Shown piece after piece: positions 44,775 to 51,280 of a stretch of DNA of 64,000 nucleotides (the stretch's first letter is position 1; every line of letters begins with the position of its first letter). This DNA comes from Candidatus Woesearchaeota archaeon (GTDB taxonomy: Archaea > Nanobdellota > Nanobdellia > Woesearchaeales > GW2011-AR9), in NCBI GenBank assembly GCA_018696595.1, contig JABHQW010000008.1, forward strand, positions 288,001 to 352,000. Direction: 5' to 3'. Below the pieces are notes generated by a model. That model was not told the origin of the DNA and made no database searches. It worked only from the letters and a program-made list of their open reading frames with translations. A program made the translations under genes and the position numbers.

Positions 44775-45227
44775 ATGAATTTAATGAATTTGATTGAAAA
44801 TATAGCTCAACAGTATAACTTAGCACTTGAAAGTCATGATGAGGATGGGGACGTCGAGTATGGTGTGGATGGCACTCAACCAGTCATAGAAATGGCGAAA
44901 TCTAATGGGTTGGGCGGTGAAGGCGTAGAAGAAGTGCTGAATCTTGAATTGAAATTTGGTTTTATTAATAAAGGGAGTATGGAAAGCCAACCAGTTTCTT
45001 TGTCAAGAAAAGGGAATGAAGCATACGTTGTTTTTGGAAGTGATGATACTTGGGAAGTTAAAGGGGATTTCACTCTTCCAAGTGTGTTGTTCTCTCATCT
45101 TAATAATGGAGAAGTTCAAGCAAGAGATTATTTGCTAAGTGTAGGAAGTAAGAGTGGAGACTTGTATACTGTTGATTTGAATAAAGTTAAAGAAACAGGT
45201 GAGAAGTTAATAGATTATTTTATATGA
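44775..45227 (+). CDS. Hypothetical acidic protein
   Basis: 150-aa ORF with GAGGTG RBS upstream. Confidence 0.6.
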   Translation: MNLMNLIENIAQQYNLALESHDEDGDVEYGVDGTQPVIEMAKSNGLGGEGVEEVLNLELKFGFINKGSMESQPVSLSRKGNEAYVVFGSDDTWEVKGDFTLPSVLFSHLNNGEVQARDYLLSVGSKSGDLYTVDLNKVKETGEKLIDYFI

Positions 45228-45697
45228 TGTCTGTTTTTCTTTTTTTCTTTTAATTCTTCTTTAATACTATAAATGACCAACCCAACTACCGCAATTGATA
45301 AAGCAGAATCTGCAATGTTAAAAGCAGGCCAGAAACTAAGATTGATGAAATCAATTACATAACCTCTAAAAAATCGGTCTAACAAATTTCCAACTACTCC
45401 TCCTAAAAATACAGCAAATAGTATTTGAGGTATTTTTTCTGTTGGTATTTTCTTATAGTAAACAATAACCAATACCGCAACCATAAGAGAAACAATTCCT
45501 AGTAACAAAGCATTATCTTTCAGTATCCCAAATCCTGCTCCAGTGTTTTTGATAAAAGTTATTTTTAGATATCTAAACCCAAAATAAGGTTGAAACTTCA
45601 AAACTAAATATTTAGTTAATTGATCTAAAATTACTACCACAATAGCAATTAATGAGAATAAGAACTCTTTTTTTTGAAAAAATGTTTTCTTTACCAT
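45215..45697 (-). CDS. lspA: Signal peptidase II (lipoprotein signal peptidase)
   Basis: LDQLTK, NTGAGFG, GNLLDR, GYVIDFI and FNIAD (both catalytic Asp motifs). Confidence 0.93.
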   Translation of the reverse strand: MVKKTFFQKKEFLFSLIAIVVVILDQLTKYLVLKFQPYFGFRYLKITFIKNTGAGFGILKDNALLLGIVSLMVAVLVIVYYKKIPTEKIPQILFAVFLGGVVGNLLDRFFRGYVIDFINLSFWPAFNIADSALSIAVVGLVIYSIKEELKEKKKNRHHIK

Positions 45698-47592: not shown

Positions 47593-47690
47593 GTTAATTG
47601 TCTAATTTTATAGGTTTTATAAGGTTTTTGGAAATAATCTTTAATTTAGTACTGGAAATTTTTATAAACCTAGTTGTTTTTATTCTTAAG

Positions 47691-48515
47691 ATGAAAAAAA
47701 GAGGTCAAGTAACAATATTTATGATTTTGGGAATATTTGTACTTATTACTGTTTTTTCTTTTGTCTTTCTGAACAATTATACAAAAACAAAACAGCTTGA
47801 ACAGGATGTAACAGATGGGTTAGAATTAAATCTTAATTCCGAGAGAGTTAATAACGCAGTTACTTGGTGCATTAATGATATTGGTGGTAAAGCCATACTA
47901 AATCTTGGTGCTTATGGTGGTAAACAAGAGCTAGTTGGCAATTTCTTTGATGAAGAATTATTTGATGCCAATTATCTCTATTATTTTGGAGAAAAACAAA
48001 CTTCTTCGATAGAAGAGATGGAAGATTCTTTAAGTATTATGATGGAAGAACATTTAGAAGACTGTGTGGATAAACTAACAAAAAAAGAATCCATTAATGT
48101 GGAAGAAAATATTGTCAACCACGATTTAATCTTTGAATCGTTTCAAGTAGATAAAGGCAAAATCAACACATCTACAGAAATAATTGACGAGGCAGTAATG
48201 TTCACAGTAAACTGGCCATTAAAATTAAAATTTAGGGACCAAGAGAAAGAAATTTCTAATTTCCCCACCAAAAAGATCGAGGTTGATTTAAACCGGACAG
48301 CTAATTTTGTTGAAGATTTTGTTGAACGGTTACAAGTCAACCCTTACTTTATCGATGTTGTTTATCTTTTAAAACAAAATTATACCATTGACTTAACAAT
48401 GTTAAATAACGACACTTACGTTTTTTTAATTACTGACAACAATTCAATAATTAATCATGAACCATTAAAATTCTTATGGGCAGCAAAATTAAACAATACT
48501 GGGGTGTTGATATGA
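47691..48515 (+). CDS. Surface protein with class III (pilin-like) signal KRGQ
   Basis: MKKRGQVTIFMILGIFVLITVF. Start moved to 47691; ATGA overlap with the next gene. Confidence 0.65.
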   Translation: MKKRGQVTIFMILGIFVLITVFSFVFLNNYTKTKQLEQDVTDGLELNLNSERVNNAVTWCINDIGGKAILNLGAYGGKQELVGNFFDEELFDANYLYYFGEKQTSSIEEMEDSLSIMMEEHLEDCVDKLTKKESINVEENIVNHDLIFESFQVDKGKINTSTEIIDEAVMFTVNWPLKLKFRDQEKEISNFPTKKIEVDLNRTANFVEDFVERLQVNPYFIDVVYLLKQNYTIDLTMLNNDTYVFLITDNNSIINHEPLKFLWAAKLNNTGVLI

Positions 48516-50461
48516 AAAGACTTATTGTTTGTTTTGGGTTGTTGGTTTTATTGTTCCCTTTAGTTTGTGCTGCTGAAGATAGTTATGAAGTCAATTATGC
48601 TAGTGCTGAATCAATAATCATGGCTCCTAAAGACTTTGAGATTGATGCTGCTGAAGCATTAAAAGAAGGCAATGGTCATGTTTTAAATGAAGACCAATGG
48701 GCTCAAGAAGGTAACCTTAATAAAATCCCCTCAGGAGACTTAAAAAAATATCCTAAGGCCTGGGACGCTGTTTCTACAAAACATGGTCTTGGAAAAGCAA
48801 CTTTGAATTTAGGAAATGTGGTTTACAAAGATGGGCTTCTTAGTAATGGTGATACTACTTTAGATTTAAACAATTTTAACGGAGCAATAATCTCCTCTTT
48901 AAATGGTGGCGGTTTTACAATTAAAAAAAAGTCTACCTCTTTAGGAGAATTTAATCTTGGTGATAGTAAAATTAATTTAGATGATTTCCAGGCTGGTGCA
49001 GAGGTTAAAGAAATTAATGGTGAACTTAATATTATTCTTTCTAAAGGAGCAAGAATGACTGATTCTAAAGGTACAGAAATTGTTGCTTTAGCAAAAGATA
49101 CAATTGTTACTTTAGGTGAAGATAAACTAAACGTTGAAGGGATTGCTTTAACTTTTGATGCGCTTGGCAATAAAGGTTTTATTGGCGATCCTACATCAAA
49201 ACTTAAGGGTGCGTTATCTTATGATTATACTGACTTAAAACAAGAACTAGAAAATGGAGTTGTTTTATTATCTGACGGTACTTTTTTGGGTGATCAGAAA
49301 TATTTAGATGGCTTAAAGGGAAACATTAAAGAAATTCTTGGTAGTGTTGATCCAAGTAAAATGACTCTCAAAAGAGTAAATGATGCTCTTGCAAAATCAA
49401 TGGATGAGAAATATGCTGAGCCCATTAAAGAATATCAAGATAATCTTGAAAAACTTTTTGCAAGTCAGGGGAAAGAATTGTCTAAAGTTCAAGATGAGAT
49501 GAAAAAAATGGAAGAACAGTTTGGGTCTGAGCTTTCTACTCAGCTGGCAAATTTTGACCAATATAAGAAAGATTTACTTGCCACTGGCGAAGAACTTAGT
49601 CAACCCCTTTTACAATACGCCCAACAAATTGAAGAATATAAAGATGAAATTGAAAATTTGCCTGATGCAGCACAACAACAATTGATTCAATATTTAGAAG
49701 GAAATAAAGCAATTGAGGAAACCATTGCAAAACTTAGTGGTGCAATTGAGCCTTTAACTGAACATATTGAAACTTTTAAAGAGTATCAAGAACAGGCCGA
49801 GAAAATTAATGATAACATTAAACAAGGAAAAAGACTGGCCAACAGATTTGATTTACCTTCTGAAATGGGCCAGGCTGTTGGGGCGGCTGCTTATTTCGCC
49901 AAAGATTATTTTCCAACTATTGATTATGCAACAGAGGACGGGGTGTTGCAAACAGGAGTTTTTTTAGCAGAACGAGGTTTTTTACCAACCGCTTATGTTC
50001 AAACACAAGGTACTGCTTGGACTCTTACTGGGGCAGCAACTGTTGAAGAAATTCAAGCTCAAGGAGCATTTGTTCTCAATCCAGAAGTACCTCTAAATAT
50101 ACTTGTTGAAGCAAGTACAAAAAGGGGGGCTCAAGCTAGTTTTAATTACTTATCTAATGTTGGTGCTTTTAGTGCAGTTGTTGGTCAGAAGGGTTTTGGC
50201 GGGGCTTATAATTCTGAGAATGCAAAAGCTGAAGTAACCGTTAGTCCAAATGGAGATTTTAATGTTAAGGGTGGTGCAGAAATTGCAGGCCAGGGTTCTT
50301 TAGTTGCTGAAGTTGAAATGAAAGATGAGAACTTAGTGGCGGGAGCTTCTTATCAAACAAAGATTGGTGATTCTGTTACTGCTGAAGTTAATGCCAATTA
50401 TGGCAGCGTAGAAGGTAAAGAAGATTATTCGGCGGGCTTTGCTGTTCAAGCGACCTGGTAA
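48512..50461 (+). CDS. Secreted protein: beta-rich N-region, coiled-coil stalk, C-terminal amphipathic beta-strand (barrel-like) domain
   Basis: Signal peptide MKRLIVCFGLLVLLFPLVCA; helical mid-region; C-terminal alternating strands ending YSAGFAVQATW. Confidence 0.7.
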   Translation: MKRLIVCFGLLVLLFPLVCAAEDSYEVNYASAESIIMAPKDFEIDAAEALKEGNGHVLNEDQWAQEGNLNKIPSGDLKKYPKAWDAVSTKHGLGKATLNLGNVVYKDGLLSNGDTTLDLNNFNGAIISSLNGGGFTIKKKSTSLGEFNLGDSKINLDDFQAGAEVKEINGELNIILSKGARMTDSKGTEIVALAKDTIVTLGEDKLNVEGIALTFDALGNKGFIGDPTSKLKGALSYDYTDLKQELENGVVLLSDGTFLGDQKYLDGLKGNIKEILGSVDPSKMTLKRVNDALAKSMDEKYAEPIKEYQDNLEKLFASQGKELSKVQDEMKKMEEQFGSELSTQLANFDQYKKDLLATGEELSQPLLQYAQQIEEYKDEIENLPDAAQQQLIQYLEGNKAIEETIAKLSGAIEPLTEHIETFKEYQEQAEKINDNIKQGKRLANRFDLPSEMGQAVGAAAYFAKDYFPTIDYATEDGVLQTGVFLAERGFLPTAYVQTQGTAWTLTGAATVEEIQAQGAFVLNPEVPLNILVEASTKRGAQASFNYLSNVGAFSAVVGQKGFGGAYNSENAKAEVTVSPNGDFNVKGGAEIAGQGSLVAEVEMKDENLVAGASYQTKIGDSVTAEVNANYGSVEGKEDYSAGFAVQATW

Positions 50462-50952: not shown

Positions 50953-51280
50953 GATAGGTAGGGCGGAATAAGCCGCCTTTTGTCAAACCCAAACAATTAA
51001 CAATGTAATTGCGATGGTTTGTTTTAGCATTCTACTAAGCGTTGAACCAACTTGCACTGGTTAGTATTCGCCGTTTCATCGCTCCCATACAACATAGTCA
51101 TGGGGTTAACTCATTGCTTTCTCAAGCAACTTCGCCACTATCATCCCGATGTATGGACGTGTCGTTTCTGAGCCATGGACAGCCATTTCTGACTCTCACT
51201 TCCGTGAGTAACCTTTCATAGTGGGCGGACTTTCCTAAGCGAATAAATTCACCTTCTGCTAAATACCGCTCCTACCTATT
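50953..51280 (-). ncRNA. rnpB: RNase P RNA
   Basis: Minus strand carries AGGAAAGTCCGCC (P4 5'), CAGAAAC, GATGAAACGG, GTGCAAG, CGCTTAG and ACAAAAGGCGGCTTA (P4 3'); terminal P1 ATAGGTAGG:CCTACCTAT; TATA about 20-27 nt upstream. Confidence 0.95.

Follow-up and report, generated by a model that had tools for sequence, protein, structure and literature searches.

A conserved gene pair of a Woesearchaeota-type archaeon, coding for a pilin-like adaptor and a secreted protein with an amphipathic beta-sheet tail, as a putative surface-display pair

In bacterial type IV pili, complexes of minor pilins carry PilY1, an adhesin that is not itself a pilin. Attachment to other cells is the way of life of DPANN archaea, and transmembrane beta-barrels are regarded as a distinguishing mark of organelles and of the outer membranes of bacteria. 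Archaeal surface proteins with class III signals are described as diverse (Szabo et al. 2007, cited in PMC6098224), and the gene pair P0002–P0001 analysed here resembles the proteins referred to there. The pair is located in a 64-kb stretch (the window: 64,000 nucleotides, GenBank assembly GCA_018696595.1, contig JABHQW010000008.1, positions 288,001 to 352,000, forward strand) of the 1.19-Mb, 97% complete genome of a marine Woesearchaeota-type (DPANN) archaeon, and the window genes were read from this stretch. P0002, the first gene, codes for a type-IV-pilin-like protein with a class III signal, and P0001, the second, for a 649-aa protein with a Sec-type signal peptide and a beta-rich C-terminal tail. 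Like PilY1-type adhesins, P0001 is a Sec-exported non-pilin encoded together with, and plausibly displayed by, a protein with a prepilin signal, and the genome codes for a prepilin peptidase. Unlike PilY1, with which it shares no sequence or fold relation, it is accompanied by one adaptor instead of a set of minor pilins, and no pilus genes lie near the pair, T2SSE-type ATPases being encoded only elsewhere in the genome. By this analogy P0001 would work most like the non-pilin adhesins carried by pilin-like proteins, being a member of none of the families considered.

The most solid new result is the conserved pairing of the adaptor with a secreted protein. A family profile built without P0001 was searched in 401 genomes of the phylum, and the N-terminal module of the P0001 type was matched in 14 of them, all of the same order. 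In each of the 15 loci of this search the gene directly 5', on the same strand, codes for a protein of 230–400 aa in which a hydrophobic helix comes after K[KR]GQ or a close variant of it; at one locus (L012) the upstream open reading frame (ORF) is cut by the locus end and its N-terminus lies outside the view, and another (L013) comes from an unpublished genome (G321), without which the pairing claim also holds. The first-pass annotation had reported translational coupling of P0001, through an ATGA, to a pilin-like gene with a KRGQ motif. The overlap is confirmed, with the ATG of P0001 (48512) sharing ATGA with the TGA stop of P0002, and the coupling is stronger than first thought because the pairing is kept in 15/15 related loci. 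Stop and start codons overlap by 4 or 1 nucleotides in 9 of 14 loci, which fits co-production of the two proteins.

The constant part of the secreted partners is the N-terminal module, followed by C-terminal parts that vary from a beta tail, through Cys-rich tails (L007 and L016), to giant ORFs of 3,055–13,972 aa (L008, L011, L014, and L009; G297:C1, G058:C13, G298:C3, and G205:C25, respectively), in which only the first ca. 100 module positions match. The adaptors encoded beside the giants bear an extra Ig-like C-terminal domain, and no membrane anchor or beta tail was found at the C-termini of the giants. Mature P0001 has no helical membrane segment (the maximum 19-residue hydropathy is 0.96), and neither a lipobox nor a known C-terminal sorting signal was found in it. 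Because only the N-terminal module is constant and the C-termini of the giants lack an anchor, the N-end is the plausible attachment end. A lipoprotein nature of P0001 was considered and rejected, as Cys 19 in PLVC makes a poor lipobox and is missing in P0003, a 78%-identical homologue. An ORF resembling signal peptidase II (LspA) is present in the window, on the strand opposite to the pair.

The adaptor P0002 begins with MKKRGQ-VTIFMILGIFVLITVFSFVF, a class III signal composed of a basic leader, Gly, and then a hydrophobic helix. Among 13 orthologues G5, Q6, F10, and G14 vary little or not at all, and their alignment (A4) shows Q6, F10, C60, G77, Y95, and C125 as invariant; judged from this alignment, the adaptors are a true family with two invariant cysteines. 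No Pfam entry, pilin families included, and no PDB sequence was matched by the adaptor family. The genome codes for a prepilin peptidase (Peptidase_A24, PF01478; 59.4 bits, above the cut-off) and for four further adaptor paralogues, i.e. five with P0002, each followed by a different protein of 408–2,307 aa with a Sec signal, so that an adaptor with a large Sec-signal protein is a genome-wide cassette type. The N-terminal module of P0001 was not detected in any of the proteins encoded 3' of the other four paralogues. Of the 401 genomes sampled from the phylum, 372 have the adaptor family, in 1–8 copies each; the tally takes in five unpublished genomes (G321, G242, G243, G332, and G395).

P0001 matched nothing in Pfam, NCBIfam, or the PDB sequences beyond coiled-coil noise over residues ca. 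260–450. Searched exhaustively with phmmer, 1.8 billion representatives gave 26 matches, including one full-length homologue, P0003 (78% identity); about 23 of the matches, 200–570 aa long, cover the N-terminal ca. 60–290 residues of P0001, and one, P0028, is a weak match to its helical region only. Another of the 26, P0006 (158 aa, from a metagenome), has only the last 85 residues of the P0001 tail, at 81% identity, behind an unrelated N-terminus; it could be a fragment, chimeric or wrongly called, or else a tail that stands alone. Searches of the PDB sequences with the family and adaptor profiles gave nothing meaningful, neither domain of P0001 has a paralogue in its own genome, and in the literature no description was found of this family or of beta-barrel membrane proteins in Woesearchaeota. 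P0001 or its longer call is present on about 25 public contigs and is named in none of them. The longer call begins at 48476; the start at 48512 is likelier, since it yields a standard signal peptide and the relatives start alike.

In the family plan (alignment A1) a signal peptide and the conserved N-domain precede a linker that varies, after which come a Gly/Ala-rich helix bearing a turn motif and ca. 130–170 aa of a beta region rich in S, T, G, and A. The N-terminus of P0001, MKR with a hydrophobic core and CAA/ED, resembles a cleavable Sec signal, as first annotated, and is common to the relatives. The N-domain (residues 22–255) defines the family and is the candidate docking module. The Q/E/K-rich helical region of ca. 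200 aa is found only in P0001 and P0003 and is thus, as far as the alignment indicates, a lineage-specific insert. The family profile made without P0001 matches its C-region weakly (10.9 bits, independent E-value 1e-3), for which reason homology of the tails across the family is likely and not firm. Residues 456–530 are 85% identical to P0003, as compared with 73–83% in the other regions of the mature protein, and within them aligns the one motif in the C-terminal half that the whole family shares; on these grounds this segment, for all its low model confidence (23–49 on the scale given below), is probably structured and functionally central.

The positions of these parts and of other features are collected in Table 1. 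The TATA-like box, a candidate promoter, lies ca. 25 nucleotides 5' of the P0002 start. An archaeal RNase P RNA gene is situated just 3' of the pair on the opposite strand.

Table 1. Features of the P0002–P0001 locus (window positions) and related features elsewhere in the genome (G000)
Feature	Position	Strand	Basis or remark
LspA-like ORF (signal peptidase II)	45215-45697	-	
TATA-like box tttataaa, candidate archaeal promoter of the two-gene operon	47660..47668	+	read from sequence
P0002, 274 aa, class III (prepilin-type) signal and globular domain with two invariant Cys	47691..48515	+	translation
P0001 ORF	48512-50461	+	649 aa
P0001 start codon and Sec-type signal peptide, residues 1-21	48512..48574	+	sequence; N-termini of relatives alike
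P0001 conserved N-terminal domain, residues 22-255	48575..49276	+	phmmer, AlphaFold2
P0001 Q/E/K-rich helical region, residues 256-455	49277..49876	+	alignment A1, AlphaFold2
P0001 Gly/Ala-rich helix, conserved turn motif, and ca. five possible strands, residues 456-530	49877..50101	+	alignment, AlphaFold2
P0001 amphipathic beta-meander, residues 531-649, end ...AVQATW	50102..50458	+	AlphaFold2, face composition, structural neighbours
Archaeal RNase P RNA	50957-51276	-	RF00373, 138.7 bits
Adaptor and Sec-protein cassette, outside the window	G000:C3:161971-165812		stop/start often overlapping in the four cassettes
Adaptor and Sec-protein cassette, outside the window	G000:C3:17987-26919		
Adaptor and Sec-protein cassette, outside the window	G000:C6:170331-176109		
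Adaptor and Sec-protein cassette, outside the window	G000:C3:185912-196987		
Prepilin peptidase (Peptidase_A24)	G000:C6:275304-275645		
Barrel-like candidate ORF, 246 aa	G000:C3:28860-29600	-	end ...GGFFKKEF

The structure of P0001 was modelled with AlphaFold2 (AF2) on a 29-sequence alignment, giving a mean predicted local distance difference test score (pLDDT) of 67.9; prediction from the single sequence was uninformative (pLDDT 40), and the ESM Atlas model of the homologue P0004 was too poor for use (pLDDT 0.33). The beta-like N-terminal region proposed in the first-pass annotation is borne out, residues 30–250 being modelled at a pLDDT above 90 as a small helical part (ca. 30–95) followed by short beta hairpins (103–252). 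The helical stalk of ca. 200 aa proposed next to it is borne out as helical and not as a continuous stalk, as residues ca. 262–466 are predicted to form helices mostly of ca. 12–36 residues, broken at Pro or Gly, with a pLDDT of 40–67. Over residues 442–540 the pLDDT is below 50. The last part is predicted as nine long strands over residues 531–647, with turns of 2–5 residues and one 11-residue loop, at a pLDDT of 68–87 from residue ca. 570 on and of 44–54 over 531–569. In its confident part the model of the C-domain is an open, gently curved meander sheet, for which barrel closure is not predicted.

In the original description the tail was an apparent transmembrane beta-barrel of ca. 14 strands within ca. 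175 aa, with a terminal aromatic residue as in a beta-signal. Short alternating strands with tight turns do fill the last ca. 120–175 residues, but only nine are modelled, and the region of the other five (about 475–530) has a pLDDT of 23–32. P0001 does end in Trp, but in the wider family the feature appears not to be conserved, F or W being terminal in 4 of 22 aligned members, with about five more having F in the last three residues. Comparison of the AF2 model with Foldseek gave nothing at E <= 0.001 in PDB or BFVD. Neighbour lists obtained with VIA-align against 48,161 chains, and in a second look at the top 1,000 Foldseek hits, are taken up by neighbours of the C-domain, none identifying the fold of the N-domain, and are dominated by transmembrane beta-barrels (score, aligned residues, and distance in parentheses): mVDAC (11.6, 119, 3.7 A), BtuB (10.6, 110, 2.9 A), TamA and FhaC (both 10.4; 108 and 111; 3.4 A and 2.6 A), KdgM (9.9, 108, 5.3 A), the SAM complex and BamA (9.7 and 9.6; 110 and 123; 4.1 A and 4.5 A), BrkA (9.0, 91, 5.1 A), and fly and human Tom40 (8.7; 100 and 99; 2.1–2.2 A). 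These alignments extend over about 100–135 residues only, i.e. a part of the larger barrels. The sheet resembles part of a barrel wall and is open, as a refutation of the first-pass barrel reading would require, yet one of its faces is apolar, so that only half of what that refutation calls for is seen. No outer-membrane protein (OMP) family was found in the Pfam/NCBIfam scans, which covered P0001, the C-domain by itself, and 29 family members. The sequence observation is real and as a barrel unproven, the main interest lying in the conserved module of adaptor and secreted protein.

The two faces of the sheet differ in composition, the apolar one having A14, V9, F4, Y4, I2, and L2 (mean hydropathy +1.86), with F and Y near the strand ends, and the polar one E6, S6, K5, and N5 (mean hydropathy -1.27). 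In the beta-type (dyad) hydrophobic moment the last 170 aa of P0001 rank 8th of 715 genome ORFs, and an alternating-hydrophobic motif with terminal F or W, as in ...GFAVQATW of P0001, occurs in 5 of the 911 genome ORFs of at least 150 aa. As compared with P0003, the apolar face has 6 substitutions, mostly conservative, one of them being M603K, and the polar face 14, including charge reversals. This pattern is equally compatible with a lipid-facing belt and a buried core. A hydrophobic Gly/Ala-rich helix, which about half of the family members have just N-terminal of the sheet, could cover the apolar face. A tandem hairpin repeat was considered and rejected, since only a weak hairpin periodicity was found (lag 25, z 3.0). 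The genome contains other barrel-like candidate ORFs, three of which showed no profile relation to the P0001 tail (hhalign probability <1%); the 246-aa candidate, divergent from a TrmB-like gene, is unrelated to it in sequence (hhalign probability 0.1%).

The simplest reading of the locus is a display system, because the adaptor and the N-terminal module are constant and the rest varies. P0002 and P0001 are accordingly viewed here, tentatively and with somewhat less than even confidence, as a cell-surface display pair. P0002 would be a type-IV-pilin-like adaptor whose class III signal is cut by the prepilin peptidase of the genome, and through the hydrophobic helix at its N-terminus it would stay in the cytoplasmic membrane or become part of a pilus-like fibre. 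The presence of this peptidase and of T2SSE-type ATPases in the genome speaks for the reading. P0001, exported by Sec and itself lacking a transmembrane helix, would remain at the surface through docking of its conserved N-terminal module on the adaptor, with the N-end proximal and the C-end distal. The helical insert would serve as a spacer and the amphipathic beta-sheet as the distal working end, its apolar face turned toward a hydrophobic partner, for which the likeliest candidates are a lipid-like ligand and, on a host or neighbouring cell, the surface of the envelope or membrane; the tail would not form a bacterial-style barrel in an outer membrane of its own cell. Several observations weigh against this reading. 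Gene adjacency may mean nothing more than co-regulation. The proteins encoded 3' of the adaptor paralogues are unrelated, with no shared docking module detected, so that docking would need paralogue specificity. The C-domain model is of moderate confidence only, with residues 442–540 below a pLDDT of 50, which makes a closed barrel possible, and in a protein-language-model look-up, to be taken as a lead only, the tail fell near porin-type clusters (scores 0.88–0.90).

The best surviving alternative, in itself unlikely, has the tail closing as a VDAC-sized beta-barrel, alone or as a dimer or trimer formed through the helical region, and entering a host membrane without an insertase, as beta-pore-forming toxins do. 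The interpretation first given is supported in so far as P0001 is a surface protein that is secreted and whose gene is coupled to a pilin-like one; closure of the barrel is absent from the prediction. A membrane belt is favoured by the tight turns, which, as in VDAC, are found on both sides of the sheet, and by the ending ...GFAVQATW, and is disfavoured by the Ala content of the apolar face, 14 of 42 residues or one third, a weak hydrophobicity for a surface in contact with lipid. The helical region that would bring about oligomerisation is missing in most family members, a terminal F or W is present in just the few mentioned above, and packing of the Gly/Ala-rich helix on the apolar face of a soluble fold would be the more natural arrangement. 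Less likely still is the fuller version, according to which the tail is half of a VDAC-sized barrel that closes by oligomerisation and enters the host membrane without Omp85; DPANN archaea would then possess a pilin-anchored device for perforation or bridging, and the transmembrane beta-barrel would have been invented, or captured, by archaea.

A soluble lipid- or ligand-binding half-barrel, in which the Ala/Val face would wrap around the Gly/Ala-rich helix or a ligand, as in open barrels of the LolA/LolB type or JlpA, and would capture hydrophobic molecules for a lipid-dependent symbiont, is improbable. Soluble open or single-layer sheets (JlpA, OspA, the CPAP G-box, and MORN repeats) gave structural scores below those of the membrane barrels, and OspA and the G-box have two polar faces, in contrast to the one clearly apolar face of the P0001 sheet.

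Highly improbable is an integral barrel seated in a second, outer membrane around the archaeal cell, in the style of autotransporters or OmpM/SlpA, with the barrel as the anchor and the N-domain as an exposed or wall-binding head. One DPANN lineage, ARMAN, is drawn with two membranes in PMC6098224. As compared with VDAC/Tom40, the Omp85 family (TamA, FhaC, BamA), TonB-dependent receptors, and porins, the P0001 tail matches about half a barrel wall, has no sequence family match and an unusually Ala-rich apolar face, and belongs to an archaeon without a demonstrated outer membrane. The search for BamA/Omp85 homologues proposed at the outset gave no PF01103 match in the 97%-complete genome, i.e. 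no insertase, with all diderm bacterial control genomes matching. The type Va autotransporter domain (PF03797) is not matched by P0001, and neither it nor OMP_b-brl (PF13505) has a match genome-wide at E <= 1. OmpM/SlpA proteins, which are attachment porins, consist of a head with an N-terminal SLH domain, a continuous trimeric coiled coil, and a C-terminal barrel, whereas in P0001 no SLH or other wall-binding domain was found and the helical region, predicted with low confidence as short helices, is not a continuous coiled coil and, in contrast to these proteins and to autotransporters, is missing in most relatives. Besides the model not being closed, the giants carry the N-terminal module without a beta tail, and the tail thus cannot be the general anchor of the family.

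A subunit of a fibre or sheath, with the beta domain assembling on a pilin-primed filament through strand exchange or edge-to-edge pairing, is barely plausible, as its favourable features, i.e. coupling to a pilin-like gene, an open sheet with free edge strands, the weak hairpin periodicity of ca. 25 residues, and a weak Pfam match to DUF4402 over residues 562–627 that is below the cut-off (E 0.044), are opposed by a single copy per genome with no paralogue, by the rarity of the family (14/401 genomes), and by the absence of chaperone- or usher-like genes among the window ORFs adjoining the pair.

The means by which DPANN archaea hold and tap their hosts are poorly understood, and the locus defines a simple unit, a gene for a pilin-like adaptor with a gene for a secreted protein, in which pilin-associated surface display would be built from undescribed families. 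Should the tail be a self-inserting barrel-like domain, an archaeon that lacks Omp85 would depart markedly from the view that such barrels belong to bacterial outer membranes and organelles. The adaptor occurs in multiple copies and in nearly all genomes sampled from the phylum, with partners ranging from 400-aa proteins to giants of 14,000 aa, and its docking to them, if true, would explain how these archaea hang varied surface proteins without membrane anchors.

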